This document shows, piece by piece, positions 15,843 through 46,179 of a DNA stretch of 64,000 nucleotides. The notes beneath the pieces are model-generated. The model saw nothing but the letters and a program-made list of their open reading frames with translations, ran no database searches and was not told where the DNA came from. Source of the stretch: Candidatus Wolfebacteria bacterium (lineage in GTDB: Bacteria; Patescibacteriota; Minisyncoccia; Phycocordibacterales; NVSU01); contig NVSU01000001.1 of the NCBI GenBank assembly GCA_002401345.1, positions 68,476-132,475 of the forward strand. The letters run 5' to 3'. The position numbers and the translations under genes were made by a program. How positions within the stretch are numbered: position 1 is the first letter of the stretch; every line of letters begins with the position of its first letter.

Positions 15843-17375
15843 ATGACGTTTTTACATGTATTTAAAAAAAATTGCATTATTTCAATTCTTGTACTCTTGC
15901 TGTTGAGCTGGGGGATATTCTTAAGATTCCACAATCTGGGACAGTCATCATATTGGATGGATGAAGGATATTCAGTAAATGCGGCACTCTCCACAGCAGA
16001 GAAAGGATATCCATTTCTTGATTCAGGGATGACCTACGATACACATCTGCCGAGCACGTACGCAATTGCCGGATCAGTAAAATTGTTTGGTGAATCAAAC
16101 ACTTCGACACGCCTTCCATCGGTTATTTTTAATATACTATTCCTTGCTACTATATTTTTATTCACCAAAAAGTTTTTTGGGATAAAAACTGCACTTCTTA
16201 CAACTTTATTTTTGACGTTTTCATATTGGGAAATCGGATGGGCTCGACAAGCAAGAAATTATGCGCTCTTTCAGCTCTCATTCTGGCTTTCTCTTTATTT
16301 CTTCTGGCAACTGCTCTATAACACACGAGTAATAAAGTATGTGGTACCGTGGATTATATTTTCATTTCTCACTTTCTTTACACATCGTCTAGGCCTTTTT
16401 CTTTTGCCTATCTATCTTATTTCTTTTGTAGTAGTGCAATGGGATCATCTCAAGAAAAACTGGTTACATTATTTATTCGGTGCACGCTCAATATATGTAT
16501 ATATATTTACCCTTTTAATATTCATTATCTTTGGAGGAGGAGTATGGAATACAATAAAAGAATCTCTCTCACTAAAAATATTTTATTTACCACAGTATCT
16601 AGCATTTATAAAAAATAATTTCCTGCTTGTGATAATTCTCGCGCTTTCTTCTCTCGCATTATATTTCAAAAACAAATTAATTCGTCAAAAAATATCCCTT
16701 CTTCTGATTGTCTATATAGTTCCATTAGTGATTATTTCTTTTTTTATCCTTCTCTCGGGTCATCGTTACCTTTTCCCTGTTTTACCTGCGCTTTATATTT
16801 TAAGTGCACTTACATTTGTATATATATGGGAAAAATACAGAAATATTTTTATACGAATCGGAATCTCTGTGGCAGTAGTGCTTATGATACTTTTTTCAAA
16901 GGAGTTCCAGTTTATGCCACGCACATTCTTTCCCCTTGAATCAAATCGTACACCTATCGAATTGGGACAAAAAAACAAGGCGTCGCAAAATTATTATATT
17001 TATACTCCCCAGCCTGACTGGAATAACGCATATTCCTTTATCAAAGAACGCAACACACAGGACGATATTATAATCTCAGTTCAACCAGTCTTTAATAAAT
17101 TATACTTAAATGATGCAGGGTACTGGATAGCATATTCACTCAGTGACAAATCTACACCTCCAATGTCCGATTTCTATGTAGGAGCTCACACTATACAAAA
17201 TCTTACAGAGCTCACACAACTCACTCGCAATGAACATGGGTTTATTATTTTAGACTTTCTTTCAATGGACAACAGAATTGAGCAACACATTCTTGAATAT
17301 ATACATGAACATATGGAACTTGTATACAAAAAGGAAACAAACTACTGGTCGCGAATATGGATATATCGTTTTTGA
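15843..17375 (+). CDS. GT39/GT83-type polytopic membrane glycosyltransferase (PMT / ArnT-like, polyprenol-phosphate-sugar dependent)
   Basis: 525-aa ORF. YWMDEGYSVNAALSTAEKGYPFL...SYWEIGWARQARNYALFQL. More than 10 TM segments. The annotated start was moved to the ATG at 15843 because 15798-15842 overlaps the repeat element. Confidence 0.65.
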   Translation: MTFLHVFKKNCIISILVLLLLSWGIFLRFHNLGQSSYWMDEGYSVNAALSTAEKGYPFLDSGMTYDTHLPSTYAIAGSVKLFGESNTSTRLPSVIFNILFLATIFLFTKKFFGIKTALLTTLFLTFSYWEIGWARQARNYALFQLSFWLSLYFFWQLLYNTRVIKYVVPWIIFSFLTFFTHRLGLFLLPIYLISFVVVQWDHLKKNWLHYLFGARSIYVYIFTLLIFIIFGGGVWNTIKESLSLKIFYLPQYLAFIKNNFLLVIILALSSLALYFKNKLIRQKISLLLIVYIVPLVIISFFILLSGHRYLFPVLPALYILSALTFVYIWEKYRNIFIRIGISVAVVLMILFSKEFQFMPRTFFPLESNRTPIELGQKNKASQNYYIYTPQPDWNNAYSFIKERNTQDDIIISVQPVFNKLYLNDAGYWIAYSLSDKSTPPMSDFYVGAHTIQNLTELTQLTRNEHGFIILDFLSMDNRIEQHILEYIHEHMELVYKKETNYWSRIWIYRF

Positions 17376-17418
17376 TTCTTTATCTTGCAGATGATACAAT
17401 TTACAGTGCGTCGTAATA

Positions 17419-19368
17419 GTGATTTATTTTACTATTATGGTGCTTTTTTTGTGCCCATTTTACCTCATGGTGAACAAAAATATTCCTACAACTAAAAAAT
17501 CTTCAAAGAGACTATTAAGAAAAAGAAAACGCGTATTCCTTCATCGCTTTGGCGCTATTTTAATTATAGTAATCCCGATCATAGTGATTTCTTTTTTAGG
17601 AATACAGCTTTACCAAGCGTCTGCATACAATGCATTCTATACAACAGACCTTAATCCCGAGACATTCAAAAATGATAGTTTGCCTCTTTATATTAACGAA
17701 GATCTAAATAAAGAAATATTTGGACAAGGTGGGGTGATAGATAATGAATATTATTTCGAAATAATCGGTTCACCTTTCGAATTCATCTGGCAACCAGAAG
17801 AATTTCCAATAAAAAAGGATGTACAAGTCAGCGCTACATTCAAAGGAAATACTTTTTTGGAACTTGGTATTCCCTGTATAGCATGCAACCAAGAAAACTA
17901 CAGATGGGAACCTTTTTATGATCCTCTTAAAAATCCTCCGGCAATAACTACATTATTTGAAAAGAATACAGAAAATAACTATACGAAGAATAGTATTACA
18001 GAAATAAAAAACGAGCTCGTCGGATCGCAGGTTTTTTATGTATATCTAGAAGACAAGATTGATCTTTCTATTACCAAGATTTCATTAAATCCACACAGTG
18101 CTGAAAAAAATATCCTGGTCACTCTAACTAATCTTGAAGGAACCATAGTATGGGAGGAGGAGCTCCCGCATGTTACGCATGAAGAAACATCATTCCGCTT
18201 TGAGGCAGCGCTTGAAGAAAAAGGTATCTATAAACTCTCTATAGTAAATTCTTTAGATGATTTCATTATCACTAACCTTTCTATTAATACACATGCCATT
18301 GCTTCAGCTGATACTATTCATTCAAAGATTACTATAGACACATCTATAGATGAATGGATCACTATCTCAAAACAAATAGAGGGGGAATTTAAAGACAAAA
18401 ACGCTATTAATTTTGTACTTAGAAATCAAATTTTAGAAGAAAAAAAGAAAAAAGAAGACATAATAAGAGAAAGGGGCTTTACGATAGCACAAGAGTTCAA
18501 AGATTTTTTGATTTGGAAAAAAGATAATGCACCAGTGCTTCATTTTGTAGTTCCAGACGAAGAGAGCACACTTCGCGAATTCCTTGCGCTCTCTATTCCT
18601 GAAAAAAGAGTGGTCGAGGAAAATAAAGATCTTGGAATTGTGCGGGACGCACCAGAGGGATTTGCGACAACACCGACAACCGTCAACACCGACTTGCGTG
18701 GTAATCACTCTTTTTATCTTTACCTCTCTGATTCATTTAGTTCCGACATATCAATAAAAGAACTCAATTGGTATGATGGCGCTGATGATATTACGATAAC
18801 GCTCAGTACAAAAAATGAAGGGAGGAAATTATGTCAAAGAACATTTTTTGACGACGGAAATGTCTCAACAGACAAACAAGAACATACAACAACTATTCCC
18901 TTTGAATGTAATAATCTTACTCCCGGAATATATCTTTTATCTTTCGAAGAGTCCTCATCAAAGAAAGATTATGTGATAAACAAACTCACAGTTAACACAA
19001 ATAAAATAATAGTTAAAAACGGTATTCTTAATTTACAACCACTACCACTCTACACTAATGTAACCACCGAAAAAAATATTAAATTCTACTACTGGCATGA
19101 GAACCTAGATCAAGAGATCACATTCACTTCAAAAGGAAAACAATTATCACTTTCATTAACAAAAGAAGATAAGGGTCGAGGAGTTTTTTATCCTTTGACA
19201 GCTGGATTATGGGAAATATATGCCTCTAAAGGTAATGCTGTTATTTCAAATGCTGATTTCGCTTTTTCACCTGAACATTGGTTTATCGTTGAACCGGATT
19301 ATATTGTTACAAAAAAAATAGATGACTCCACAATACTACTTAAAAATATAGCGATCACAGTACTATGA
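17419..19368 (+). CDS. Large membrane-anchored extracytoplasmic protein, hypothetical
   Basis: 649 aa with an N-terminal TM. 4-nt overlap with the next gene. The start may be the internal M at MVNKN. Confidence 0.45.
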   Translation: MIYFTIMVLFLCPFYLMVNKNIPTTKKSSKRLLRKRKRVFLHRFGAILIIVIPIIVISFLGIQLYQASAYNAFYTTDLNPETFKNDSLPLYINEDLNKEIFGQGGVIDNEYYFEIIGSPFEFIWQPEEFPIKKDVQVSATFKGNTFLELGIPCIACNQENYRWEPFYDPLKNPPAITTLFEKNTENNYTKNSITEIKNELVGSQVFYVYLEDKIDLSITKISLNPHSAEKNILVTLTNLEGTIVWEEELPHVTHEETSFRFEAALEEKGIYKLSIVNSLDDFIITNLSINTHAIASADTIHSKITIDTSIDEWITISKQIEGEFKDKNAINFVLRNQILEEKKKKEDIIRERGFTIAQEFKDFLIWKKDNAPVLHFVVPDEESTLREFLALSIPEKRVVEENKDLGIVRDAPEGFATTPTTVNTDLRGNHSFYLYLSDSFSSDISIKELNWYDGADDITITLSTKNEGRKLCQRTFFDDGNVSTDKQEHTTTIPFECNNLTPGIYLLSFEESSSKKDYVINKLTVNTNKIIVKNGILNLQPLPLYTNVTTEKNIKFYYWHENLDQEITFTSKGKQLSLSLTKEDKGRGVFYPLTAGLWEIYASKGNAVISNADFAFSPEHWFIVEPDYIVTKKIDDSTILLKNIAITVL

Positions 19369-21158
19369 TCCGTGAAATGCTTAAAAATAAATGGGGTCCT
19401 ACCCTTTTGGTGTATGTGGCAATCTATCTGATTGTCATTTTTTTAGATGTACGACTTGGTGGCTTTTTGAGCTTTTATTTTAATCCTGTAATTTTTCATT
19501 ATCTTTCACTTATCATTATTATTTCTCTTTTTTATGGTGTCACAAATGAATGGAAAAAAAATACACAGATAGCAAAAAGCCTAAAACATTTCGATGACGT
19601 GGATCAAAAAGAAAACAATCGACTATACGTTATACTATTGCTTATTATTTTTGCCCTGGGAACATTCCTAAGACTCTATCACCTAGGGGAACTTTCTCCT
19701 GCAGGAGATGAATATAGACACCTTCTTGCAATGAAACGTTTTTTAACTGATGGTATATTTGGCTACACTACCTCATCTATCACAACTCTTATTATCACGG
19801 GCGTAAAAAAAATTACCACAAGTGATTCACTATTTTTGCTTCGATTACCGTTTGCGCTTCTCGGATCACTTTCAATTTTACTTTTTTATGCGATCGGGAA
19901 AAAAATAGCAACTAGGCAAGTTGGTTTAATTGCAGCGTATCTTTTCGCATTTCTACCGCTTGCAGTAGGTCTTTCGAACTACATACGTGGGTATGAAATA
20001 GCGCTTTTTGTCTCCCTTGTTGCGATATATTTTCTATTTTCGCCTTATATAAAAAATCTATACTTCAAAATAGTTCTCTTTATTCTTAGTTTAAAGCTTA
20101 TTGCGTACTTAAATTCTGATCAACGTTTTGATGCAATGGTTATGTTCTTTGCTATCTTTGCACTCTTCTATGGAGGTCTCATGTTTATAGACGAGATTAT
20201 AAAAAATAAGCGATGGAATAACATCATCAAAATTACCGCCCCTTTTATTGCATTTGTTGCGGGAATTTCTATCATGCCACTTTTCTTTGAGTTTAGTTTT
20301 TCGAGGACAGTAGAATGGGGGTATCTTTTTTTAATTAATCATAGCTATTCCGATGTAACATGGTATTTTGAGATTATTCCGTTTATTGTGATAATATTTT
20401 TTATTATTAGTGCATTCTTTGCAAAAATTAAAAAGAAAAATGTCATCTATGCACTCTCTTTTACATTGATTTTTATCATCGCCATATTCATGTTTTATTT
20501 TGACGGACCAAAGCGATTTCAAGTACGCTATCTGTATCCCCTCTTTCCGTATTTCATCCTCCTTCTCTCCATTGGTATTTCCTCCGCATATTATATATTC
20601 AAAAGAATATTTAAGGTGGGAATAATAGAATACAGTATTGTCTCTGTCATTGTATTTATTACTATCTTTAGCCCTGTGAAAGCTTTTTATTTCACATTCA
20701 CGGAAACGAACGGAGAACACAGCAAACTAAATCAACTAACCTATTTACCAGACAAAGAACTTATAACATTTGTGAACGCTCACAATATCGATGTATCTAA
20801 AATCATAACCACGACACCGTGGGTTTTTGACTTTTATTATGACCAACCATTTTTAATGACAGGAGAACTTAATCAGTATGTGCACTTTCCCAAAGAATGG
20901 AATTATGAATTTGTGAACAGAACAAAGCTCTATAGCATTAGTGGTTTTCGATCTGAAGAAGAAATCAAAACAATAAATGAAATTATTGATACACGTGATA
21001 TAGAATATCTTATTTTCCATAGTCTGCCACAGCACTCAGATTACAGATATAGCTACGAGTACCCCCTTGAAACTATACGTGACACAGAGTTGGTAACTAT
21101 TATTGGAGAAAATAGTTCATATGGATATTACATATATAAAATCAATAAAGAATCATGA
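19365..21158 (+). CDS. Second GT39/ArnT-like polytopic membrane glycosyltransferase
   Basis: 597 aa. LRLYHLGELSPAGDEYRHLL with many TM helices. An extracytoplasmic C-terminal domain. Confidence 0.6.
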   Translation: MIREMLKNKWGPTLLVYVAIYLIVIFLDVRLGGFLSFYFNPVIFHYLSLIIIISLFYGVTNEWKKNTQIAKSLKHFDDVDQKENNRLYVILLLIIFALGTFLRLYHLGELSPAGDEYRHLLAMKRFLTDGIFGYTTSSITTLIITGVKKITTSDSLFLLRLPFALLGSLSILLFYAIGKKIATRQVGLIAAYLFAFLPLAVGLSNYIRGYEIALFVSLVAIYFLFSPYIKNLYFKIVLFILSLKLIAYLNSDQRFDAMVMFFAIFALFYGGLMFIDEIIKNKRWNNIIKITAPFIAFVAGISIMPLFFEFSFSRTVEWGYLFLINHSYSDVTWYFEIIPFIVIIFFIISAFFAKIKKKNVIYALSFTLIFIIAIFMFYFDGPKRFQVRYLYPLFPYFILLLSIGISSAYYIFKRIFKVGIIEYSIVSVIVFITIFSPVKAFYFTFTETNGEHSKLNQLTYLPDKELITFVNAHNIDVSKIITTTPWVFDFYYDQPFLMTGELNQYVHFPKEWNYEFVNRTKLYSISGFRSEEEIKTINEIIDTRDIEYLIFHSLPQHSDYRYSYEYPLETIRDTELVTIIGENSSYGYYIYKINKES

Positions 21159-22396
21159 ACTTCCTTCGAATAAAAATAAAAGAATATCTGGATAAAAATA
21201 AGTTCATGTCTTCTCTCTTTATTCATGGTATATGGATGACAATACGACAAGTGATTGTGCTAGGAAGTGGTCTTGCGCTCTCTATTGCTTTTGCACGACT
21301 TGCTACACAGGAAGTATTCGGACAGTATCAGCTCATCCTTTCAATACTCTCAGTTGTGTCAATTGTTTCCATACCTGGACTCAATATGTCTATATTAGGA
21401 TCAACGGCCCGTGGATTCGAAGGCAGCTTCACGCGCGCGGTGCGCACAAGCTTTCTCTGGAGTCTCATCGGTATTCCTGTGTTACTTGCTGTTGGTGGAT
21501 ACTATTATATATATGAAAATCCTACAGTAGGACTTGCATTTATGGCACTCTCTTTATTCTTTCCATTTCTCTACGCACCGAATACATGGGATTCATTCCT
21601 TCAGGGGAAAGAGCGTTTCGATGTTGCATCACGCTACTCATCAATTCAGGCACTCATAAATGCAGCCACAATAATAGCAATATTATTTTTATTTAAAGAT
21701 AATCTACTTCTTATTGTAGTGGCATATGCACTGACGCTCGCTTTCTTTAATATAGTCTGGTACAAAAAAAGTCTTCGGTATGTAGAAAATAAAAATGAAG
21801 ACAAGGAAACAATTCCCTATGGATGGTTTGTCACAAAAATACAAATTCTCTCACTGATTGCAGGTAATCTCGACAAGGTACTTATAGGAATATTTATAGG
21901 GCCTGTACAATTGGCGGTGTATGCAATTGGAATAAATTTTTCAAAAAAAATTCTTTATTTCGTAAAAAGCCTTCTCGGTGTTGCAACACCAACCATATCC
22001 AAGAAAAATACTGTGAGCATGAAACTCTACAGTAAGATTTTTATTCTTGCGACTATTTTTGCAGGAGCACTCTTTCTATTTATGCCGGTATTAATCCCAT
22101 TTCTTTTCTCGAACAAGTATGTTGATTCTATTTTGCTCTCACAACTCGTTGTAGCCTTTTTACCATTTTACATACTAAACATACTCTATAAAAACCATTT
22201 TCTCCTCTATTTAAAAAATAAACGTATCCTTTTCTATGAATCCATCATATTTCCTATCACAAAAATTCTTCTCATGATTCCACTCATCTATTTCTTCGGA
22301 ATTATCGGTCTTGCGTTCCTCATTGGATTCCAAAATATTCTTAATATGGCGGTGCTTTATCTTCTACACAAAAAAAACAAACAAGTGGTGAAATAA
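21155..22396 (+). CDS. Polysaccharide/oligosaccharide flippase (Wzx-like, MOP superfamily)
   Basis: 413 aa with about 12 TM helices. It sits in a glycan locus with a 4-nt overlap to the upstream gene. Confidence 0.5.
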   Translation: MNFLRIKIKEYLDKNKFMSSLFIHGIWMTIRQVIVLGSGLALSIAFARLATQEVFGQYQLILSILSVVSIVSIPGLNMSILGSTARGFEGSFTRAVRTSFLWSLIGIPVLLAVGGYYYIYENPTVGLAFMALSLFFPFLYAPNTWDSFLQGKERFDVASRYSSIQALINAATIIAILFLFKDNLLLIVVAYALTLAFFNIVWYKKSLRYVENKNEDKETIPYGWFVTKIQILSLIAGNLDKVLIGIFIGPVQLAVYAIGINFSKKILYFVKSLLGVATPTISKKNTVSMKLYSKIFILATIFAGALFLFMPVLIPFLFSNKYVDSILLSQLVVAFLPFYILNILYKNHFLLYLKNKRILFYESIIFPITKILLMIPLIYFFGIIGLAFLIGFQNILNMAVLYLLHKKNKQVVK

Positions 22397-22398
22397 TG

Positions 22399-22435: not shown

Positions 22436-23047
22436 TTATTTCCTCACTTTAAGGATTATGTCCATACCGTAGCAAGAAAATGTATTTGAAAGATGTGCTT
22501 CGTAGAATTCTTGAGTACGTACATGAAGGTTTACAATTTTACCAAGAATATATTTTTTGAATACCATAGGAATGAAAAATGTGCCACTAAAATAAAGCCA
22601 TTGAGAGACAACCTCAAAATCTAGATCAGTGTAGAATGATGGCACCTGTCGCGTGAGCTTGTCTTGATTTTTTGAGTAATAATAAAATGTATAATATCCA
22701 AAAAATCGCTTATGAGTCGGATCAGAATAATAATACGGATTTGAAAAATGTGGGACAAATATATATATCATACCTCCGGGCTTCAATACACGGTGCATCT
22801 CTCTCATAAGTAAATCAAAATTATCAACGTGCTCAAAAAAGCTCTTGCTGTGTATTTCATCAACAGAATTATCAGGAGCAAACGATAATCCTTTCTCGAG
22901 GTCTGCAACAATATCAATCCCAGACAGTGGAAGCATATCGACAGTAATACGATCGGTACGAGAGGTAGGCCCGCTTCCCAAATCGAGAATAATCTTTTCA
23001 CCCTTTTCAATCTTATCCTTTATAATGTGATGTATTTGATTAGCCAT
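22436..23047 (-). CDS. Class I SAM-dependent methyltransferase
   Basis: LDLGSGPTS motif I. VLKPGGMIYIFVP. Confidence 0.7.
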   Translation of the reverse strand: MANQIHHIIKDKIEKGEKIILDLGSGPTSRTDRITVDMLPLSGIDIVADLEKGLSFAPDNSVDEIHSKSFFEHVDNFDLLMREMHRVLKPGGMIYIFVPHFSNPYYYSDPTHKRFFGYYTFYYYSKNQDKLTRQVPSFYTDLDFEVVSQWLYFSGTFFIPMVFKKYILGKIVNLHVRTQEFYEAHLSNTFSCYGMDIILKVRK

Positions 23048-23092: not shown

Positions 23093-23908
23093 TTAAGATT
23101 GTTGTTTATTAATAATATCCTTACATACAGAAATCCATTCACTCTTTTCTTTTCTTCCTTTTTTCCTCAGTAAGTAACCTCCCAAAAGAGGAATTTTGTA
23201 CAAATATTTTCTTTTTGTATGTATATACTTGTTTGCCCCAAGCGTTGACCCCCTACCAAAATGTGATGAGAAAATATGTTCATATCCTTTCAAATAATGC
23301 TCTGCGACACCAATACTATTTCTAAACGGACCATCTTTATATGTGCGCGTATTTCGAGCTCCTAATATAATCCCTTTAAATCCTGCTGCAAGATATTTTT
23401 CTCTCAATTCTGCGCCTGTATCCTCATGTAGCGATATATCACGTGGACGTAAATCAATATTTAAATCATTAAACGTCTTTGTTTCAAATAAAATGGCATA
23501 CATGAGTGGAAAATCTTTTGGCTTGTCTCCATCTGATTCTGTTCCCGCAACTTTTACCTTATCGTCGAATGTACTTATTAATATAGTGTCCCAGTCTTTT
23601 ATAAGCCATGTTGCATCTGCATCAAGTATTGAAAAATACAGAGTATCCACTTGTGTTGCTAAATAATTGAGCGCCGTACCATGCGCCATACTCCCGCGTA
23701 ACCCTGTGCTATTGCGTTCAAGTGACACATTCTCATACTCACTAATAATACGTTGCAATTTCTCATAATCTTTTGACTTAGAATCGTTATCCACAATAAA
23801 AACTTGATAAGGATTACGTGTAAGTTTCTTCAATCCGTACAAAGTATTTTCAATAAACTCAGCAGAATTAAAGTTCACTATTAAAATTGTTATGAGAGGA
23901 TTCTTCAT
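23093..23908 (-). CDS. Glycosyltransferase family 2
   Basis: ILIVNFNSAEFIENTL...VFIVDNDS (GT-A fold, DxD). Confidence 0.75.
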   Translation of the reverse strand: MKNPLITILIVNFNSAEFIENTLYGLKKLTRNPYQVFIVDNDSKSKDYEKLQRIISEYENVSLERNSTGLRGSMAHGTALNYLATQVDTLYFSILDADATWLIKDWDTILISTFDDKVKVAGTESDGDKPKDFPLMYAILFETKTFNDLNIDLRPRDISLHEDTGAELREKYLAAGFKGIILGARNTRTYKDGPFRNSIGVAEHYLKGYEHIFSSHFGRGSTLGANKYIHTKRKYLYKIPLLGGYLLRKKGRKEKSEWISVCKDIINKQQS

Positions 23909-27131: not shown

Positions 27132-27132
27132 A

Positions 27133-30415: not shown

Positions 30416-30427
30416 AAAAATTCCACA

Positions 30428-30465
30428 TTTCACTATTCTTAAAAACGTTAGAATAGTGTGAATTT
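30428..30465. promoter_or_regulatory. Degenerate copy of the TTCT..AGAA operator-like palindrome (ATTTCACTATTCT-taaaaacgt-TAGAATAGTGTGAAT)
   Basis: Inverted repeat related to the 23060/43348 palindrome, in the promoter region of the cytidylyltransferase-GT2 gene. Confidence 0.35.
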
Positions 30466-30480
30466 CTGCTCTTTTGGCAA

Positions 30481-37747: not shown

Positions 37748-38458
37748 CTATTCCTTTTTTATTATTAATAAATAATTGGATGGAAAAACTTTTTTATTTC
37801 TAGAAATTCTATCAAGGAACAGTAATATATATTGAATAATGAAGTTTAATCCATATACTACCCATTTTAGTATGGGTATATTCCAAAATAGCCCCATTGA
37901 AAAAATTGCACCTACACTTCCCAAAAAACCAAAAAAACCTCCAACTTCTTTTAATACCAAAATTTCAAAATTATTTTCATCAGAAAACTTTTTTAAAGAA
38001 TATCTTGTATATCTAAAATAATCATACGGTTCATTGTGTATATACATTAAAAAGGGAACAGAAATTATAGCAATGCCACCTTTTTTCAAAATTCTATTTA
38101 TTTCATGAAATGACTCCAAGGGATCTGGTATATGTTCAAATACCTGAGAAGAAAAAACTATATCAAATCTCTCATTTTCTAGATTCGTACGTGACGTTGT
38201 TCCTATGTAATCTAAATCTTTATGTGTTTTTTTAAAATCCAAACTAAAATAATTATCCGTATAGTTTTTAAGAAAATTCTTATAAAAAAGCCTGCCCGCG
38301 CCTAAATCTAAGACTACCGAATCTTTTTTAATATATTTAGAAAAATATTTCTTATATTCTCTAATTAATTCGATGTGATGAGACACTGAATTAAAATAGA
38401 TCTGTGATCCACCATATGTATTTGAAAATTTATTCCAATTTTTTTTTATATATTTCAT
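37748..38458 (-). CDS. Class I SAM-dependent methyltransferase with a C-terminal TM segment
   Basis: VLDLGAGRLFY, ILKKGGIAIISVPF. Confidence 0.65.
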   Translation of the reverse strand: MKYIKKNWNKFSNTYGGSQIYFNSVSHHIELIREYKKYFSKYIKKDSVVLDLGAGRLFYKNFLKNYTDNYFSLDFKKTHKDLDYIGTTSRTNLENERFDIVFSSQVFEHIPDPLESFHEINRILKKGGIAIISVPFLMYIHNEPYDYFRYTRYSLKKFSDENNFEILVLKEVGGFFGFLGSVGAIFSMGLFWNIPILKWVVYGLNFIIQYILLFLDRISRNKKVFPSNYLLIIKKE

Positions 38459-38484: not shown

Positions 38485-39252
38485 CTACATGTAACTATTC
38501 TTTGTAAACACAAACTCATTACAACCTGTCATACCCTGAGTTTTTATAAATCTTTCTAATGTGAAACCATTATTTTCAAAAAAACTAACAATTTCTTTCT
38601 CGCTCGCATATTCATATGGATACCCACCTATCCAATCTATGACATCATAATAAAAATTCATTCCCCTTCTCTTTTTAAGAGGATTTTTAAATGTCGATAA
38701 GAATTTTGCAATGTAGATGATCACATAAAAAAAATAAATCATTATTTTTTTAAAAAATTTAGGCGACAGGTTGTATAGACGTTTTATTAACTTCCACAAT
38801 GGAGATGTCCAGTGTTTGTTATAAATAGCAATAACAAAGGTTCCATCATTTGTAACTAATTTCATGACGTTTTTTATTGCGCCGTACATGTTTCCTGTGT
38901 GATGAAGCACTCCCCATGAATACACAATGTCAAATGTTCCAAATTGAGTATATCCTTCCTCCAAAATTGATTGTCTATAAAACTCAATATCCTTTACTCC
39001 AATTTTTTGAGCATTCGCTCGTGCTGCATCAACACTCTCAGGTGATATATCAAATCCAATTACTTTTTTTGCGCCCAGATCTTTTGCTGCAAGAGAAAAA
39101 AGTCCACTACCAGAGCCGACATCCAAAAATGTCTTATTTCGAATATTTGTTTCTCCAATCAACTCTCTCAGTGAGTCTTTTGCATCTACAAATCTCTTCG
39201 AATCTAACGCATTCTCTGAAAATTTTTGCCAATTTTTACCAAAGTTAAACAT
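38485..39252 (-). CDS. Class I SAM-dependent methyltransferase
   Basis: FLDVGSGSGLFSLAA, FDIVYSWGVLHH, TNDGTFVIAIY. Confidence 0.7.
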   Translation of the reverse strand: MFNFGKNWQKFSENALDSKRFVDAKDSLRELIGETNIRNKTFLDVGSGSGLFSLAAKDLGAKKVIGFDISPESVDAARANAQKIGVKDIEFYRQSILEEGYTQFGTFDIVYSWGVLHHTGNMYGAIKNVMKLVTNDGTFVIAIYNKHWTSPLWKLIKRLYNLSPKFFKKIMIYFFYVIIYIAKFLSTFKNPLKKRRGMNFYYDVIDWIGGYPYEYASEKEIVSFFENNGFTLERFIKTQGMTGCNEFVFTKNSYM

Positions 39253-39261: not shown

Positions 39262-41133
39262 TTAATTAAAATATTTCTTATACCAAAGATTAAGTGCCAT
39301 TAATGTCCAGAGTTTTTTTGAATTGTCTTTACCTCGAATATGGTCACTCAGTAACTTTTCGATTTTATCTTTCTTTATTATCTGTAATACGAGACCACTA
39401 GTATCTAATACCTTCTCTTTTACATAGTCCCTCAATTCATTTCTAAACCAATACACAATGGGTATGCCGAATCCTTGTTTTTTTCTATATAAAATAGATT
39501 TTGGCAAGTATTTCTGCAACATTTTCTTAAAGATTTTCTTACCCTCATTTATATCAGTTTTATGTGTCCATGGAATCTGTGCGACAGTACTCACAAAATC
39601 AAAATCGAGCATCGGAGCTCTAACTTCAAGTGAATTTTTCATGCTCGCCATATCAACCTTGACATTAATGTCATCGGGAATATAGCTGTTAAAATCAAGA
39701 TACAATATCTTATTAACATCATTTATTTTTTTGTTATGTAGGATTTTTTGAAACGTATTCTTACTCAAAACAAGTTTTTTCTTAAAGTCCTCTCTATAAC
39801 ATTCTTCTTTAGTACGTTCATCAAAATATGTCGTGTAATTAAAATGTCGCGTCGCACTGTCTTTATTTACTGTTCTTATAAAGATAGAGAGTTTGTCGAG
39901 GAAGTCTACCGACAATACTTTACTGGCATATTCAATAATCCCCAATAAGGGATGGAGTACTTGAATAAACCTTCCATATCTTTGAACAAAGACATGTCGC
40001 CTATGCTTATCATAGCCACCAAAATTTTCATCTCCACCGTCTCCAGAGAGAGCCACTGTTACATGTTCTTTTGTTAATTTCGACAAAATAAACGTCGGCA
40101 ATTGAGAGCTATCAGCATATGGTTCTTCAAACTGATGTATGAGACCTTCAATATGCTCAAGTAAATCTTGCGATTGTACTTTAAATTCTTTATGGTCGGT
40201 ATTATACAGCTTCGCAACCTCTCTCGCATACACACTTTCATCAAATCCCTCTTCATCAAAAGAAATAGAGAATGTTTTAAGTTTCTTGGTATAACGACTT
40301 GCAAATGCGACAATGGCGCTACTGTCCACCCCACCTGAAAGAAATGCTCCTAAGGGTACGTCTGAAATCATCCTTCTTTTTACTGACTCTTTAAGTTTAT
40401 CTTCAATAATTGACATCCACTTCTGCTTAGATACATTGAGTTTTTCAGAATATTCTAAATCAAAATACTGATTTAGAAAAAAGTTATTTGTCTTTAAATT
40501 TAAAATAAAATAATGACCTTGTGGCAGTTTATAGATATTCTTAAAACCGGTTTTAGGCGCAGGTACATACTGAAGAGTAAAATATTCATCAATTGCTTCA
40601 AAATCAATTTCTCTTTTAATGTCATGCTCTAAAATTGCTTTTAATTCTGAACTAAAAATAAATTTATTTTTATCTCTATAATATTTAAGTGGTTTTTGAC
40701 CAAATCTATCACGGGCTCCGAATAATATTTTTCGTTGCACATCGTATATCACAAATGCAAACATTCCATTAAAGTCCTGTACGCAACTAATTCCTTTATC
40801 CAAATACGCTGCAGCTAACACTTCTGTATCAGTACTTGAGGTAAATGTATATCCCTTCTTCTCTAATTCTTTGCGCATTTCTTTGAAATTATAGAGTTCT
40901 CCATTATATGTGACTACGACTCTCTTACCTTTATGCACATAAATCATAGGCTGATGGCCTTTTTGAGATAAATCGACAATAGACAATCGAACATGCCCAA
41001 GACCAACATTTTCATCTAAAAAAACACCCTGATCATCGGGTCCGCGATAAGAGATTTTTTCATTCATTGCTCTAATCTCCTTGTCGCTTATTTTTTCACT
41101 ATTCAATTTAACAATTCCATTTATTCCACACAT
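39262..41133 (-). CDS. asnB: Asparagine synthase (glutamine-hydrolysing) family amidotransferase
   Basis: MCGINGIV N-terminal nucleophile. SGGVDSS PP-loop. The start is set at MCG (41133) rather than the ORF extension. Confidence 0.85.
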   Translation of the reverse strand: MCGINGIVKLNSEKISDKEIRAMNEKISYRGPDDQGVFLDENVGLGHVRLSIVDLSQKGHQPMIYVHKGKRVVVTYNGELYNFKEMRKELEKKGYTFTSSTDTEVLAAAYLDKGISCVQDFNGMFAFVIYDVQRKILFGARDRFGQKPLKYYRDKNKFIFSSELKAILEHDIKREIDFEAIDEYFTLQYVPAPKTGFKNIYKLPQGHYFILNLKTNNFFLNQYFDLEYSEKLNVSKQKWMSIIEDKLKESVKRRMISDVPLGAFLSGGVDSSAIVAFASRYTKKLKTFSISFDEEGFDESVYAREVAKLYNTDHKEFKVQSQDLLEHIEGLIHQFEEPYADSSQLPTFILSKLTKEHVTVALSGDGGDENFGGYDKHRRHVFVQRYGRFIQVLHPLLGIIEYASKVLSVDFLDKLSIFIRTVNKDSATRHFNYTTYFDERTKEECYREDFKKKLVLSKNTFQKILHNKKINDVNKILYLDFNSYIPDDINVKVDMASMKNSLEVRAPMLDFDFVSTVAQIPWTHKTDINEGKKIFKKMLQKYLPKSILYRKKQGFGIPIVYWFRNELRDYVKEKVLDTSGLVLQIIKKDKIEKLLSDHIRGKDNSKKLWTLMALNLWYKKYFN

Positions 41134-41298: not shown

Positions 41299-42045
41299 TT
41301 AGCCAAATGCCGCAACAACACGGTCTACTTCTTTTTGTATCTCCGGATCTTCAGGAGCACTACCCCACCAACCAGTATATATCATGACATTTTCCATTTC
41401 CTTTCCTTGGGTATTTTCTCTTCTTACAGTAAATAATGAAATGCGACTAAAGCCTCCAATTCCCCAACTGCTTGGTAGTGGAGAATGTTTCATTAAAAAC
41501 TGCAAATCACCTTTTTTAATCCCAAAAAAATCAGCACCTTCAGAATCAAGGTATGTTTCTATTCCGAAGACCTCAAAACCCATTTCTTCAGCCAGATCGG
41601 AGCGCTTATTTTTGAATTCAGATTCAAAAAATATCTTTTTAGCTAAACCTATTCGGTATTGCTCTATTGATCCGACTTTGTTTTTTAGGTCCTTAATTTC
41701 CTCCTGATTTTCACTCTCTCCTTCTATTTCCAAAGCTATAATTTCATCAGACAATTCTCTTTCTGTTTTAACTTTTTCCAAATATTCTTCATCTATTTTA
41801 GCTTTTGGAAAAACATCTTCTATTGTTTTAATTCCTATTTCTTTTACGAGACCAACCCTCTCATTAAGACCACCGTTCATCTCATCTCTATACCTAGTAA
41901 CTTCTTCTTGGTATTCAGCAATATTGTTTAGAGGATCATGACCAAGATGCCATTTCTTATACCTCTTAGTGATTTCAATAGCTTTTTCCAGAGCTTTTTC
42001 ATAAAGCTTCTCAGGGCTTTGTTCTGATGATGATAAATTTTCCAT
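41299..42045 (-). CDS. Hypothetical acidic protein
   Basis: 248 aa with no recognisable motif. Confidence 0.4.
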   Translation of the reverse strand: MENLSSSEQSPEKLYEKALEKAIEITKRYKKWHLGHDPLNNIAEYQEEVTRYRDEMNGGLNERVGLVKEIGIKTIEDVFPKAKIDEEYLEKVKTERELSDEIIALEIEGESENQEEIKDLKNKVGSIEQYRIGLAKKIFFESEFKNKRSDLAEEMGFEVFGIETYLDSEGADFFGIKKGDLQFLMKHSPLPSSWGIGGFSRISLFTVRRENTQGKEMENVMIYTGWWGSAPEDPEIQKEVDRVVAAFG

Positions 42046-42170: not shown

Positions 42171-43334
42171 TCATTGAATACATTGAGATTTGTATATACG
42201 CATATAATCACGAGCTGCTCTTTTCCAACTCATCTGCTCAGCTTTTTTTCTACTATTTTTCTTCATTGTATCTAATAGTGTTTTGTCTCTATATAATCTC
42301 TGTAAACTCTCGACAATATCTCTATTCTTTCCTTTTCTTACGATAAAACCATTATTTTCTATCAATTCTTTTGTTCCTCCGACATTAGTTGTCACAATCG
42401 CCAGCCCAGAACTCATCGCTTCTAAAAGTGAGTTGCTCATTCCTTCATTAAGTGACGACAGAACAAATACATCTGCTTGTGTATAGTACTCACTCATCTT
42501 GTCATGTGATATTGCCCCCACAAATCTTACTCTTCTTTCAATACCAGCGCGTCTCACCTCTTCTTCGAGCCTTTCTTTTAAATCACCATCCCCTACAAGC
42601 ACTAATCTGCTTTTCTTATTTTTTTTATTAAAATCAATGAATGCCTGAATTAAATGAGTAATTCCTTTTCTTTTAATGAGTCGAGACGTTGAGAGTATTG
42701 TGAATACACCATGTGTCTGTGTACCCACTTTAAACTCTTGAGTATCAATTCCATTATGAATCACGTCAATGTCTTGCTGAGAGGAAGTGTGCTGTGCGAG
42801 CTCTTTTAATAATTTTGAATTCGCGATCACTGAATTAGAATTTTTCCAAATTTTTCTACTCAACCTCTTGAAAAAAAATGTATCAAGCCAAAAGAATCTT
42901 TTACTATAGAACGGAACATCACTTCCGCGCAGACTTACAATATATGGTAACCCCTCTTCCTGATTCACAGAACTTTTTAATGCGTGATAGGAAAGTTTCA
43001 TCGCAATAAAACCGCATGGGATTCCGAAAAATGCATGAATTAGATCGAATTGTTCGTTTTTTATTAATTTCCTACAAAACCAATAGGCTTTCCAACTGTA
43101 CACAAGTAAATCTTTCAAGCTCTGATAATGTATATTCCCACTTTTATTAACATCCAGGCGATAGATAGTGATGTGTGGCGCAAACATTTCTTTTGCATGT
43201 GCACCAACTGATGATGTTACCAGTGCAACTTCTATATCTTTTCTTTTAGAAAATTCACGCAATAAATAATATGTAGCATTTCCAGCTCCACCACCTAAGG
43301 GGGGAAATTCGTAATTGAGCATTAGTATCTTCAT
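42171..43334 (-). CDS. Glycosyltransferase family 1 (GT4)
   Basis: MKILMLNYEFPPLGGGAGNATYYL. C-terminal SLLEAMSSGLAIVTT. Confidence 0.75.
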   Translation of the reverse strand: MKILMLNYEFPPLGGGAGNATYYLLREFSKRKDIEVALVTSSVGAHAKEMFAPHITIYRLDVNKSGNIHYQSLKDLLVYSWKAYWFCRKLIKNEQFDLIHAFFGIPCGFIAMKLSYHALKSSVNQEEGLPYIVSLRGSDVPFYSKRFFWLDTFFFKRLSRKIWKNSNSVIANSKLLKELAQHTSSQQDIDVIHNGIDTQEFKVGTQTHGVFTILSTSRLIKRKGITHLIQAFIDFNKKNKKSRLVLVGDGDLKERLEEEVRRAGIERRVRFVGAISHDKMSEYYTQADVFVLSSLNEGMSNSLLEAMSSGLAIVTTNVGGTKELIENNGFIVRKGKNRDIVESLQRLYRDKTLLDTMKKNSRKKAEQMSWKRAARDYMRIYKSQCIQ

Positions 43335-43653: not shown

Positions 43654-44127
43654 TTATTTTATAGGCTCAGGAACAGTTTCTTTATAAACTTTTTCAAGCA
43701 CAAGAAGCTGGCTATAAAAATCTATTAGTGTAAGTTTTGGTTTTGAACCGGGGAAAGCTTTACGACACCATTGATCGAAAATATCATCGGGGTCACCGCT
43801 GTCATAATCCCTATTAACAAATACATAGAGATGGTCATACACCGGTTCCACATATGGATTGTCGCGGAACTGAAATGTTGTATGGTCACCATCACTCAAA
43901 AGCAAAAAGGCTTTTACTGAATTACTAATATCAATTTCAAGTAGTCCAGGCACATCATCTTCATACGTATTTACTTGTACAACAACTGATAAACTTTCAA
44001 ACAATTCTTTCCATTTTAATAAATTGTTCCTAAGTTCTTCTCGCATTTTTTGAACCTTTGCAATGTTAAGTGACTTAAACTCTTGAGGTACCTTAGTACT
44101 CTTCAATAAATTGAGGAATTTTTCCAT
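43654..44127 (-). CDS. Hypothetical protein
   Basis: 157 aa with no motif recognised. Confidence 0.4.
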   Translation of the reverse strand: MEKFLNLLKSTKVPQEFKSLNIAKVQKMREELRNNLLKWKELFESLSVVVQVNTYEDDVPGLLEIDISNSVKAFLLLSDGDHTTFQFRDNPYVEPVYDHLYVFVNRDYDSGDPDDIFDQWCRKAFPGSKPKLTLIDFYSQLLVLEKVYKETVPEPIK

Positions 44128-44203
44128 AATTTATAGTTTTTTTAATTTAAAGGAGTTATTCTGATATGCATCTTATCATATATGTCATATTTTGTCAATT
44201 TTT

Positions 44204-45169
44204 TTAGCGACTGAGGTTAGTGGTGTAATATCTTTTATACCAATTTAAAAAATTTTTGATCCCAGTTTCTATGTTAGTTTTTGGTTCAAATCCAAGTTTT
44301 TCCTTAGCTTTTTGTATATCTGCATAACTCTCTGGTACATCCCCAGCTTGCATAGGAAGATAATTTCTCTTTCCTTTCTTTCCCAATTCCTCCTCAATGC
44401 ACTGAATAAAATATTCCAATTCAACCGTAGTGCTGTTTCCAAGATTAAAGATTTCATATGGATATGACTTATCAAGACTTGCAACAACTCCCGACACAAT
44501 ATCATCAATATACGTGAAGTCTCTTTTCATTTTTCCAAAATTGAACACATTTATCGATTCTCCTTTTAGAATTGCATCTGCAAATAAAAATAGTGCCATA
44601 TCCGGCCTTCCCCATGGACCATACACAGTAAAAAATCTCAGCCCTGTGCAATTCATACCATAGAGATGATGATATGTATGAGCAATCAATTCATTTGCCT
44701 TTTTTGTTCCGGCATAGAGTGAAACAGGAGTATCAACTGGATCATCTTCTGAAAAAGGAACTTTTTTATTATTACCATACACAGAACTACTTGAGGCATA
44801 AATAAAATCTTTAACTCCTGCACACTTTGCTACATCAATTACATTAGTAAAGGCAACAATATTTGACTGAATATAGGCATGTGGGTGAGTCAGGCTATAT
44901 CGGACCCCTGCCTGCGCCGCCAAATGACAGACTTTATCTATTTTGCGATCGGCAAATACAGATCGGATAAAATCCAAATCAGACACATCACCGCGCAGTA
45001 ATGTAAAACAATTATATTCCTCAAGTATGGCATTTCGCGCCTCCTTTAATGATGGGTCATAATAATCATTAAAATTATCAATACCTATAACTGTGCTCCC
45101 TCTCTCAAGTAACGCTTTGCTCACATTAAACCCTATAAATCCTGCTGAACCTGTGACTAAAACTATCAT
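44204..45169 (-). CDS. NAD-dependent nucleotide-sugar epimerase/dehydratase (UDP-glucuronate/UDP-GlcNAc 4-epimerase-like)
   Basis: VLVTGSAGFIGFNV Rossmann motif. YASSSSVYG...YAGTKKA catalytic YxxxK. Confidence 0.85.
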   Translation of the reverse strand: MIVLVTGSAGFIGFNVSKALLERGSTVIGIDNFNDYYDPSLKEARNAILEEYNCFTLLRGDVSDLDFIRSVFADRKIDKVCHLAAQAGVRYSLTHPHAYIQSNIVAFTNVIDVAKCAGVKDFIYASSSSVYGNNKKVPFSEDDPVDTPVSLYAGTKKANELIAHTYHHLYGMNCTGLRFFTVYGPWGRPDMALFLFADAILKGESINVFNFGKMKRDFTYIDDIVSGVVASLDKSYPYEIFNLGNSTTVELEYFIQCIEEELGKKGKRNYLPMQAGDVPESYADIQKAKEKLGFEPKTNIETGIKNFLNWYKRYYTTNLSR

Positions 45170-46179
45170 ACTGTTGTATTGCTCATCATTAGTGAATCTT
45201 CTTGTCTATACACATGAACACCAGATGATGATTTATTGTTTTTGATAATATCTTTAATGTCATATACTGTGTCCCGTGTTGAAGAAAAATAACTTTTTGA
45301 AAGAATGTCTGCCAAAAGACCAAATACAAAAAACTGCACTCCTATTAGAAGGCCAAACATAAAAAGTTGAGTGAGAAATGTATTTGATAAATCTACTGCT
45401 CTAAATAACTTGTTATAAAGAGACCATCCACCCGCAGCAAAAGAGATCGCAATCAAAAATAATCCGATTCCACCAAATAAATGCAAAGGACGAGACGCAT
45501 ATTTCTTCCAAAACCATACTGAAACCATATCAAGTATGCCCTTTATGCCTCTCCTCCAGTTATATTTTGTTTTCCCAGCAATTCTTGGACGATGATTGAC
45601 TTTACACTCTCCTATTTTGAAACCTTTTATCTTTAAAAGTGCGGGGATAAAACGATGCATCTCTCCTACAAGATCAACATGATCAAAACACTCTTTTTTG
45701 TAAACCTTTAATGTACATCCACTGTCATGAATTCCATCGTTGATTAAAAACTTCCTTATTGACGCAGCACACCTAGATGCAATTTTTTTACCAAAGGGAT
45801 CTTTACGATTTTTCCGCCACCCAGACACTACATCATAATTACCTTTTTGAAGCACATTCAATAGTTTAGGAATATCACGAGGATCATTCTGTCTGTCACC
45901 ATCCATTGTCACTATAAGTTCCCCTTGTGCTTCTTTTATTCCAGCATCCAATGCCGCTGTCTGTCCAAAATTTTTTCTAAAGCTGATTATTTTAATAGGA
46001 CTCAATGTTTTTATTATCTCTAGAGTACGGTCTGTTGACCCATCATCGATAAAAATAATTTCACAGGATTTGTTCATTTTTTTGAACACCTCTGAAATCT
46101 CTTCAAAAAGAAGGTACGAATTTAGTTCCTCATTATATAGTGGAACTATTACTGATAGATTTATTTTAGGCTTTATCAT
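45166..46179 (-). CDS. GT2 polyprenol-phosphate glycosyltransferase (DPM1/ArnC/GtrB-like) with C-terminal TM helices
   Basis: LSVIVPLYNEE...IIFIDDGSTDRT...TMDGDRQNDP. Two C-terminal TM segments. Confidence 0.8.
   Translation of the reverse strand: MIKPKINLSVIVPLYNEELNSYLLFEEISEVFKKMNKSCEIIFIDDGSTDRTLEIIKTLSPIKIISFRKNFGQTAALDAGIKEAQGELIVTMDGDRQNDPRDIPKLLNVLQKGNYDVVSGWRKNRKDPFGKKIASRCAASIRKFLINDGIHDSGCTLKVYKKECFDHVDLVGEMHRFIPALLKIKGFKIGECKVNHRPRIAGKTKYNWRRGIKGILDMVSVWFWKKYASRPLHLFGGIGLFLIAISFAAGGWSLYNKLFRAVDLSNTFLTQLFMFGLLIGVQFFVFGLLADILSKSYFSSTRDTVYDIKDIIKNNKSSSGVHVYRQEDSLMMSNTTV

Follow-up and report, generated by a model that had tools for sequence, protein, structure and literature searches.

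A 30-kb gene cluster for a methylated surface glycan in a Candidatus Wolfebacteria bacterium, with conserved modules that probably hide new sugar chemistry

The 64,000-nucleotide stretch analyzed here (contig NVSU01000001.1 of a Candidatus Wolfebacteria bacterium, positions 68,476 to 132,475 of the forward strand; termed the window, with coordinates counted from its first letter) carries a locus of 28 genes, delimited at 15798–46179 by open reading frame (ORF) listing combined with Pfam and NCBIfam scans. Four plus-strand genes converge on a run of 24 minus-strand genes, extending from 46179 down to 22436, and Pfam, NCBIfam and PDB searches yielded family assignments for 25 of the 28. The minus strand encodes four glycosyltransferases of family GT4, one GT8, two stand-alone GT2 enzymes and a GT2 domain within a fusion protein, and the locus contains seven methyltransferases, five of the class I S-adenosylmethionine (SAM) type and two of the FkbM type. 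This 30-kb block is a real gene cluster for the assembly and export of a heavily methylated surface glycan. It is an unusually rich glycan locus for a member of the candidate phyla radiation (CPR), a group of ultra-small bacteria, and its conserved modules probably hide new sugar chemistry. Its core is a cassette found in many phyla that probably produces and attaches a sialic-acid-like sugar without the usual synthase.

A sequence-only reading had already proposed a surface-glycan locus of about 30 kb, and its gene set is borne out by our scans. Most of its individual gene calls stand as well, although the GT8 enzyme (34169–35140) and a 359-aa α/α-toroid protein (26052–27131) were missing from its list, and of its six methyltransferases the two FkbM enzymes are correct while the four class I enzymes fall one short of the five found. 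The high density of O-methyltransferases that it pointed out is real and is retained in related loci, which share modules with the window.

Comparison with these loci (denoted by L and a number) shows that the minus-strand run is a mosaic made up of portable modules with conservation across phyla. Module 1 comprises, in this order, a cytidylyltransferase, a GT2, a 2-hydroxyacid dehydrogenase and a short-chain dehydrogenase/reductase (SDR); module 2 consists of the two FkbM methyltransferases and a DUF115-like protein, termed p293; and module 3, the toroid cassette, pairs the 359-aa toroid protein with a 356-aa GT4. The window has a G+C content of ~35% and also contains tRNA genes and a set of housekeeping genes as is usual for small genomes. 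Two of its products have identical counterparts deposited under Candidatus Wolfebacteria bacterium, with locus tags COB64_00505 and COB64_00530. The GC profile showed no sharp island border, only a dip to 0.285 at ~37–39 kb, tRNA and Rfam scans detected no RNA features within the locus, and the ~9 kb beyond the right edge of the window hold housekeeping genes only. The same stretch is also present on metagenome scaffolds of 122–186 kb.

Outer-face enzymes and flippase

The plus strand starts with GT-C 1 (15798–17375), a PMT_2/ArnT-like protein scoring 32.8 bits against the Pfam PMT_2 cutoff of 26.1 bits, with ~9–11 membrane helices, a WMDEGYS motif after the first helices and a ~150-aa carboxy-terminal outer domain. 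GT-C 2 (19365–21158) has ~13 membrane helices, an acidic GDEYRH motif and likewise a carboxy-terminal outer domain. Its own PMT_2 score of 16.7 bits is below the cutoff, and it is tied to the family via relatives, being 39% identical to a 693-aa protein of L011, which in turn matches a 724-aa protein of L029 (E-value 1.9e-22) that reaches 32.6 bits. NCBIfam and PDB sequence searches gave no significant match for either protein. The earlier assignment of both to GT39 is not supported, as the only family matched is PF13231 (PMT_2) and not the PMT domain PF02366 with its MIR partner, and the second enzyme stays below threshold.

Between the two GT-C genes lies the gene for exp649 (17419–19368, plus strand), a 649-aa protein with an amino-terminal anchor and two repeated β-rich regions. 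Transmembrane helices are predicted at residues 1–19, the first depending on a GTG start, and 44–62; weak matches to DUF3244 and Por_Secre_tail are both below cutoff. The arrangement recurs in Magasanikbacteria (L038), where a GT-C 1 ortholog (1.7e-111), a syntenic 798-aa exp649 homolog (4.9e-50) and a GT-C follow each other in the same order. The fourth plus-strand gene encodes a Wzx-type flippase of the MOP family (21155–22396) with 11 hydrophobic segments, matching Polysacc_synt and Polysacc_synt_3 with 50.3 and 44.5 bits. Wzx orthologs with 44–50% identity stand beside the toroid cassette in L011, L014, L019 and L022. In the CPR loci L011 and L014 the flippase (50%) and a GT-C 2 ortholog (39–43%) converge on the cassette as they do in the window, and PMT_2 proteins are found also in L027 and L029.

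Farthest from the plus-strand genes, a polyprenyl-phosphate GT2 of the ArnC/GtrB/DPM1 type (45166–46179) carries two carboxy-terminal membrane helices and scores 112.4 bits for Glycos_transf_2. The match to the ArnC model takes in model positions 7–315 of 316 with 142 bits, and full-length PDB matches comprise ArnC (8e-35), GtrB sll0501 (1.2e-26) and DPMS (6e-19). The co-occurrence of a DPM1/ArnC-like GT2 with GT-C enzymes, as suggested previously, is present. Compared with the three-component systems (GtrA/B/C, ArnC/ArnT, CsbB/GtcA/YfhO, Ppm1/PMT), the locus shares the GT2 with carboxy-terminal membrane helices and the PMT_2 GT-C with an acidic motif in its first outer loop. It differs from them in lacking GtrA/GtcA, in the two GT-C genes that bracket exp649 and are co-transcribed with Wzx, and in the position of the GT2, which ~23 kb separate from them at the opposite end of the locus.

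The gene content also bears on whether the product is a conventional repeat-unit polysaccharide of the capsule, exopolysaccharide (EPS) or O-antigen-like type, free or wall-linked, with GT-C 2 or another membrane protein acting as polymerase. Wzx together with many cytoplasmic glycosyltransferases is indeed what Wzx/Wzy clusters and PglL/Wzy_C systems contain, and relatives of the shared core cassette occur in genuine Wzy/Wzz loci: it lies in Wzx/Wzy/Wzz/Poly_export loci of Omnitrophota (L009), in ABC-transporter loci of Desulfomonilaceae/Thermodesulfobacteriota (L003–L006) and beside Wzz and Poly_export in L050. In the window, however, Pfam scans found neither Wzy_C, Wzz, WaaL, Poly_export nor an ABC exporter, so that the polymerase, ligase and export channel of such clusters are missing together with their initiating phosphoglycosyltransferase. 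PMT_2 GT-C proteins are known as polyprenyl-phosphate-sugar transferases rather than as repeat-unit polymerases, and the presence of ~9 different glycosyltransferases and seven methyltransferases points to a unit that is either very complex or long and non-repeating. We therefore regard a repeat-unit polymer as unlikely.

In the CPR loci L016 (104–4221), L021 (1751–3814) and L028 (498–2519), Wzy_C proteins with carboxy-terminal TPR repeats are encoded beside the toroid cassette, which also speaks for the repeat-unit explanation. As CPR bacteria have no lipopolysaccharide (LPS), these proteins may be O-oligosaccharyltransferases or polymerases. The PMT_2 GT-C proteins of the window hold the place that the Wzy_C-TPR proteins take in these other CPR loci, and the flipped glycan is thus seemingly passed to different outer-face enzymes depending on the lineage.

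A CMP-sugar module without a known synthase

The fusion protein of module 1 (28817–30415, minus strand) consists of an amino-terminal cytidylyltransferase domain (~29741–30415; CTP_transf_3, 86.3 bits) and a carboxy-terminal GT2 domain (~28820–29717; Glycos_transf_2, 87.3 bits), its start being corrected from a 570-aa ORF (28817–30529) to the methionine of MKKISIT. The best NCBIfam model for the first domain is PseF with 73.9 bits, below its cutoff of 205.7, and PDB matches are confined to cytidine monophosphate (CMP)-NeuAc synthetases (NeuA; 1.7e-12). Based on these similarities the domain is assigned to the sialic-acid-type CMP-sugar synthetase family with none of the curated specificities, which upholds the earlier description of a CMP-NeuAc/Kdo-synthetase-like protein fused to a GT2 and places it on the NeuA/PseF side rather than the KdsB side.

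[quoted passage not shown] These KdsB scores lie below that of PseF, the structural matches are to NeuA only, KdsA, KdsC, KdsD and WaaA were not found in the window, and CPR bacteria are not known to carry LPS. A Kdo pathway is accordingly highly improbable, and with PseF scoring above KdsB and Wzy, Wzz and WaaL all absent from the window, the combination of KdsB with a conventional O-antigen cluster, which the sequence-only reading had named as the finding that would overturn it, was not encountered.

In the GT2 domain, the site of the DXD that is usual in GT-A enzymes is taken by an S-x-H motif, which at least 90% of the 120 homologs compared have in common; the subfamily also conserves CNNAN, LTGLED and REA motifs. 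Among the same 120 homologs, 49 have the GT2 fused to and followed by the cytidylyltransferase and 69 are GT2 alone, whereas the order of the window protein is shared by a single relative with 73% identity (two proteins in total). Because the two domain orders are opposite, the fusion occurred twice, and two independent fusions argue strongly that cytidylyltransferase and GT2 serve one pathway. Neighboring but unfused genes encode the two proteins in L007, L014 and L052.

The fusion gene is followed by those for a D-2-hydroxyacid dehydrogenase of 317 aa (27867–28820; 2-Hacid_dh_C, 198.7 bits) and a classical SDR of 245 aa (27133–27870; adh_short_C2, 191 bits), both on the minus strand. To assess the conservation of this arrangement, 14 regions around homologs were read and compared with the window by tblastn. 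As L005 and L006 are identical in sequence and L047–L049 are near-copies, they represent 11 distinct loci, or 12 counting the window. Module 1 is collinear in the window, L003–L007, L011, L014, L047–L050 and L052, spanning at least six phyla at 38–60% identity; the hosts comprise Desulfomonilaceae/Thermodesulfobacteriota (L003–L006), an unassigned contig (L007), CPR bacteria (L011, L014), marine metagenomes (L047–L049) and a marine metagenome-assembled genome (MAG; L050), in addition to L052. In L003–L007, L011 and L014, the orthologs of the dehydrogenase (45–56% identical) are adjacent and followed by those of the SDR (38–54% identical). The Magnetomoraceae locus L008 retains the cytidylyltransferase, the 2-hydroxyacid dehydrogenase and an extended SDR, without a close GT2 ortholog. 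The dehydrogenase remains below every NCBIfam equivalog cutoff (PGDH, 229.9 versus 454), and the best models for the SDR include glucose 1-dehydrogenase and aldose dehydrogenase, both below their cutoffs.

Several of these regions have peculiar surroundings. In Desulfomonile tiedjei (L005/L006, 3787–7539) a phage portal gene and one for an N6/N4 DNA methylase are situated at a distance of a few kb from the module, which hints that it travels with mobile DNA. The marine loci L047–L049, representing 74 member sequences (66 index blocks), have the module flanked by two DUF115 genes and accompanied by LicD, a PglC-like Bac_transf protein and a DegT aminotransferase, and the neighbors in L050 are of cyanobacterial type (DUF3122).

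A metallo-hydrolase is usually found inside module 1, of the PF04199 cyclase type in L005–L008, L011 and L014 and with a metallo-β-lactamase fold at the same place in L047–L050 and L052; none was seen within the sequence read for the window, L003 or L004. A hydrolase whose type varies at one position and which can be dispensed with fits a simple hydrolytic step such as lactone opening. A class II aldolase of the HpcH/HpaI type adjoins the cytidylyltransferase only in L007–L009. tblastn searches of the window with the L007 and L008 proteins found no HpcH aldolase, cyclase-type hydrolase or HAD phosphatase.

None of the scanned window ORFs matched the NeuB/PseI/LegI family (PF03102) or KdsA (DAHP_synth_1), and the Pfam gene tables that exist for 10 related regions contain neither of the two, L011 and L014 being partly annotated. 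PseB/LegB, PseC/LegC and PseH/LegH were likewise not found in the window, which contains no DegT or GNAT protein. The only epimerase, an NAD-dependent nucleotide-sugar epimerase of the extended SDR type (44204–45169, minus strand; Epimerase, 190.3 bits), scores 32.3 bits for PseB (cutoff 407.75) and 129.4 bits for LegB (cutoff 475), and its GalE (169.6 bits) and TviC (152 bits) matches are also below cutoff. An AsnB-type glutamine amidotransferase of 623 aa, starting at MCGI (39262–41133, minus strand; Asn_synthase, 328.6 bits), exceeds the cutoff of TIGR01536 (501 versus 267 bits) and stays below that of the amidotransferase model TIGR03108 of PEP-CTERM EPS clusters (578 versus 816.9 bits), a relationship shared with Wzx/Wzy clusters. 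Homologs with 38–39% identity close the related loci L007 and L008, and by its sequence family the enzyme probably amidates a sugar carboxylate.

Module 2 adds a putative transferase to this set. p293 (31759–32622, minus strand; a 293-aa ORF annotated as 287 aa) has no direct Pfam match and no significant match in a direct PDB sequence search. NCBI names two of its homologs DUF115 proteins, 7 of 23 family members match PF01973 weakly, and the family profile finds the archaeal MptE structure 8sd5 (E-value 0.0018). An AlphaFold (AF2) model computed from the 23 sequences reached a predicted local distance difference test score (pLDDT) of 87, and Foldseek ranked MptE, CstI and CstII on top (E-values 2e-4 to 1e-3, probability ~1.0, TM 0.4–0.49). 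Searched exhaustively against 1.84 billion representatives, the profile returned only 40 relatives (clusters), and the most distant of these are genuine PF01973 members whose scores exceed the gathering threshold. The motifs GNG(P/G)S (GNGxS), GxD and HF are common to p293 and DUF115 proteins, although hhalign comparisons of the p293 profile with single DUF115 sequences gave low probabilities despite the collinear motifs. These results place p293 in DUF115, as a small and rare branch that has diverged and for which a sialyltransferase-like fold is predicted, in agreement with the earlier DUF115/Maf-like call, and by analogy of fold its most likely role would be the transfer of the CMP-activated sugar. 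A DUF115-type protein accompanies module 1 in 12 of the 14 regions; L050 has none and L011 ends inside the module.

The two FkbM enzymes of module 2, 254 aa (32606–33370; Methyltransf_21, 52.9 bits; fkbM_fam, 87.2 bits) and 267 aa (33352–34155; Methyltransf_21, 61 bits), are encoded next to p293 on the minus strand, the former being adjacent to it throughout. The complete module recurs in L007, L009 and L052, L008 has a single close FkbM ortholog, and in L014 a p293 ortholog (48%) lies near an FkbM gene. Orthologs are 54–59% identical for the 254-aa enzyme (L007–L009) and 46–48% for the 267-aa enzyme (L007, L009). In the Omnitrophota locus L009 (7153–9258) the ortholog of the latter (46% identity) is fused to a Wzx, which suggests that methylation is coupled to flipping.

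A NeuA/PseF-like cytidylyltransferase, a DUF115 transferase with a predicted sialyltransferase-type fold and an AsnB-like amidotransferase with methyltransferases nearby are features shared with the Maf/flagellin nonulosonic islands of Campylobacter, Helicobacter and Aeromonas and with CstI/CstII, and the cytidylyltransferase, the AsnB-like and the Maf-like protein had led the sequence-only reading to a pseudaminic (Pse) or legionaminic (Leg) acid protein-glycosylation system. Such a classical Maf-type system for Pse, Leg or neuraminic acid (Neu), with the synthase encoded elsewhere and pilin or another protein as target, could further draw on PseA, an AsnB-like enzyme of Pse5Ac7Am synthesis, and on the DegT aminotransferase and GNAT acetyltransferase of the CPR relatives L011 and L014. 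The window differs from these islands in having no NeuB/PseI/LegI, no PseB/C/H/G and no LegB/C/H, its sole epimerase is far below the PseB and LegB cutoffs, and the missing PF03102 extends to the 10 tabled regions, whereas known clusters place the synthase beside the CMP-synthetase. p293 is a single domain of ~290 aa in a tiny subfamily, compared to ~600 aa and several domains for Maf, and its Wzx, GT4 and GT-C partners, in place of flagellin, indicate a lipid-linked oligosaccharide instead of the transfer of single sugars to protein. A proposed link to type IV pili is not supported either, since ~14 kb with tRNA and housekeeping genes separate PilM (59878–60966) from the locus and no pilin or flagellin gene was found nearby. 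Overall, this makes protein glycosylation by a known nonulosonic acid decidedly unlikely.

A toroid protein paired with a GT4

The most conserved gene of the locus encodes the 359-aa α/α-toroid protein of module 3 (26052–27131, minus strand), which resembles prenyltransferase β subunits and whose start was corrected from a 465-aa ORF (26052–27449) to the methionine of MNNTEW. Its repeats give weak PF00432 signals, with a best, non-significant profile E-value of 0.8, and a conserved set of Cys, Asp and His residues is predicted to be able to bind metal. We found 580 homologs, of which the 120 listed are 53–68% identical and without exception annotated as hypothetical; in genome loci the identity is 41–58%. 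A scan restricted to one genome per species yielded 37 loci. The hosts include CPR bacteria (Uhr-, Moran-, Doudna-, Magasanik-, Peri- and Saccharibacteria), MAGs labeled as Gammaproteobacteria, Bacteroidales, Desulfobaccales, Nitrospirae, Elusimicrobia, Omnitrophota and Halobacteriovorax, as well as archaea (Altiarchaeales, Nanoarchaeia, listed as DPANN, and the Asgard groups Promethearchaeota, Hermodarchaeota and Borrarchaeum).

The 356-aa GT4 (30692–31762, minus strand; Glycos_transf_1, 43.6 bits) is its constant partner, 37 of 40 loci having a homolog of it no more than 10 kb from the toroid gene, followed in frequency by methyltransferases, further GT4 enzymes and a GT2. The toroid shares with prenyltransferase β subunits and class II terpene cyclases the weak PF00432 repeats and the possible metal-binding Cys/Asp/His residues. 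It differs from them in that no α subunit gene is present, in its standing association with a GT4 in glycan clusters and in the lack of any link to isoprenoid or protein-lipidation genes. By analogy, it might act on a polyprenyl-linked intermediate, which an isoprenoid-shaped domain would fit. The pair thus represents a large family without a Pfam model or annotation that spans the domains of life, which makes it an attractive target for study.

GT4 enzymes, several O-methyltransferases and an α/α-toroid are also combined in the mycobacterial 3-O-methylmannose polysaccharide (MMP) clusters (ManT, MeT1, MeT3, MmpH), whose products are cytoplasmic. The locus could therefore comprise two unrelated neighbors, namely an ArnC/GtrB and GT-C decoration system and a pathway in the cytoplasm whose product is a polymethylated polysaccharide for storage or lipid binding, resembling MMP or methylglucose lipopolysaccharide (MGLP); the ~23 kb between the ArnC-like GT2 at the far end of the minus run and the GT-C genes would agree with such a division. 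The locus is set apart from MMP clusters by Wzx, the GT-C enzymes and the CMP-sugar module, and in 16 of 40 loci Wzx is tied to the toroid cassette. Direct convergence of Wzx and GT-C genes on this cassette is seen in the window as well as in L011, L014 and L029, and a CMP-sugar combined with a sialyltransferase-fold enzyme is a feature of surface glycans. Two separate systems are accordingly very unlikely.

Proposed assembly and further genes of the locus

Taken together, the locus can be likened to a hybrid of a Wzx-dependent lipid-linked pathway, a polyprenyl-phosphate-sugar/GT-C system and a CMP-sugar/DUF115 module. We favor, with a probability of about 0.55, a reading in which a methylated acidic oligosaccharide would be put together on a carrier lipid, Wzx would flip it and GT-C enzymes would complete it outside. 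The oligosaccharide would be built at the cytoplasmic face, probably on a polyprenyl carrier, by soluble and membrane-tethered enzymes, namely the four GT4, two or three GT2 and the GT8 enzymes together with the seven methyltransferases. One residue would be an acidic, sialic-acid-like 2-keto-acid sugar that the cytidylyltransferase domain would convert to the CMP-sugar, p293 would transfer it, and the two adjacent FkbM enzymes would probably methylate it. This activated sugar would be distinct from Kdo, Neu, Pse and Leg and would owe its supply or tailoring to the 2-hydroxyacid dehydrogenase and the SDR, which are inherited together with the module. Our low-confidence guess at the route is an oxidative one, from aldose via aldonolactone and aldonate to 2-keto-aldonate, in which the SDR might act as aldose 1-dehydrogenase, the hydrolase as lactonase and the 2-hydroxyacid dehydrogenase might oxidize C2 of the aldonate; the HpcH/HpaI class II pyruvate aldolase of L007–L009 could provide an alternative or additional keto-acid route in relatives. 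AsnB would amidate a carboxylate and Wzx would flip the finished lipid-linked glycan. At the outer face, one GT-C would probably use a polyprenyl-phosphate monosaccharide provided by the ArnC/GtrB-like GT2, and the other would probably couple the glycan to its acceptor, with exp649 as a candidate partner or acceptor.

The analysis demonstrates the gene content, the folds, the conservation of the modules, the two fusion orders and the absence of canonical synthases from the regions searched, and from these we deduce the carrier lipid, the sequence of steps, the nature of the sugar, the acceptor and the part played by the toroid. Several observations weigh against this assembly pathway. Pfam scans of the 64-kb window revealed no initiating phosphoglycosyltransferase (Bac_transf, Glycos_transf_4/MraY/WecA), so that assembly on a lipid is what we infer from the remaining genes. 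No enzyme forming a 2-keto-acid sugar by a known route was found in the window, where the L007–L009 aldolase is absent as well, and a synthase encoded outside the 64 kb searched could account for this. The substrates of the SDR and the 2-hydroxyacid dehydrogenase are predictions, both enzymes scoring below every curated equivalog cutoff. Moreover, GT2 enzymes normally use nucleoside diphosphate sugars, which makes the fusion of one to a CMP-sugar synthetase puzzling, GT-C 2 taken alone is under the Pfam threshold, and the fold matches of p293 are modest (TM 0.4–0.49).

A farther-reaching and more tentative idea, which at present is possible rather than probable, is that module 1 with the DUF115 transferase, and usually the hydrolase, constitutes an undescribed route to a CMP-2-keto-acid sugar independent of NeuB and KdsA, that this sugar is displayed in O-methylated form on the surfaces of CPR bacteria, Desulfobacterota, Omnitrophota and the organisms behind the marine MAGs, as far as these carry the CMP-sugar module, and that the toroid is a new enzyme acting on polyprenyl-linked glycans. 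Neither the cytidylyltransferase module nor the toroid family was described in the open-access literature that we searched. If a sialic-acid-like sugar is indeed made without NeuB or KdsA, genome screens relying on synthase markers overlook an entire group of acidic sugars at cell surfaces. The lifestyle of CPR bacteria is one of attachment to other microbes, and their surface chemistry, which likely governs the contact with the host, is almost unknown. The locus provides a concrete parts list for a CPR surface glycan, the core of which is not CPR-specific, as it travels between bacterial phyla and, in the case of one cassette, between bacteria and archaea.

The remaining genes of the locus, all on the minus strand, supply further glycosyltransferases and methyltransferases. 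Adjoining the flippase gene, a class I SAM methyltransferase of 203 aa (22436–23047; Methyltransf_11, 39.3 bits) precedes in coordinate order a GT2 of 271 aa (23093–23908; Glycos_transf_2, 49.2 bits), with 52–58% identical orthologs in the CPR loci L010, L011, L014 and L017, and a class I methyltransferase of 263 aa (23905–24696; Methyltransf_11, 63.1 bits), whose orthologs (36–37% identical) adjoin the p293 gene in L007 and L009. A DUF2334/polysaccharide-deacetylase-like protein (24696–25463; DUF2334, 45.2 bits; Polysacc_deac_1, 28.8 bits) has 49–58% identical orthologs in L007 and L029. Hydropathy analysis indicated carboxy-terminal hydrophobic helices in three class I methyltransferases, one helix each in those of 201 aa (25450–26055; Methyltransf_11, 52.6 bits) and 255 aa (38485–39252; Methyltransf_31, 72.4 bits) and two in that of 236 aa (37748–38458; Methyltransf_23, 47.2 bits). 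The GT8 of 323 aa introduced above scores 27.3 bits for Glyco_transf_8, exceeding the cutoff of 24.3 bits, and has a 43% identical ortholog in L014. The other three GT4 enzymes, of 372 aa (35392–36510), 365 aa (36513–37610) and 387 aa (42171–43334), match Glycos_transf_1 with 114.7, 54.3 and 127.5 bits, respectively.

Two acidic soluble proteins are encoded toward the far end of the run, one of 248 aa (41299–42045) with only a weak DUF7678 match and one of 157 aa (43654–44127) without any Pfam or NCBIfam match. Considered as possible GtrA/GtcA flippases, both were rejected, as neither has a hydrophobic segment or a GtrA family match. No homologs of the two were found in 40 related loci, and they may be lineage-specific additions.

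Directly upstream of the minus-strand run, a 712-aa protein (46373–48511, minus strand; DUF5667, 37.7 bits) combines an amino-terminal membrane helix with a long Glu/Lys-rich region of several similar, coiled-coil-like repeats of ~90 residues and could be a surface or envelope protein. To the left of the locus, a minus-strand gene pair (15041–15700 and 14031–15050) encodes a 219-aa protein with an amino-terminal helix and Asp-rich dockerin-like repeats (DVDTNDDDSIDILDFN, DFDCDSIVSILDFN), which has no Pfam match, and its 339-aa neighbor with a peptidoglycan-binding PG_binding_1 domain (36.1 bits). The small ORFs of the window were also inspected for a PglC-like initiating transferase; none is present, and these ORFs correspond to an FMN reductase, AbiTii, VTT/DedA, RuvX, response regulators and PTPS. 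Elsewhere in the window, AbiTii (58568–59314; 147 bits), a SET-domain protein (55387–55983; 82.9 bits) and, beside PilM, the VTT/DedA protein (61000–61590) are encoded; members of the DedA family have been linked to the recycling of undecaprenyl phosphate as a carrier.

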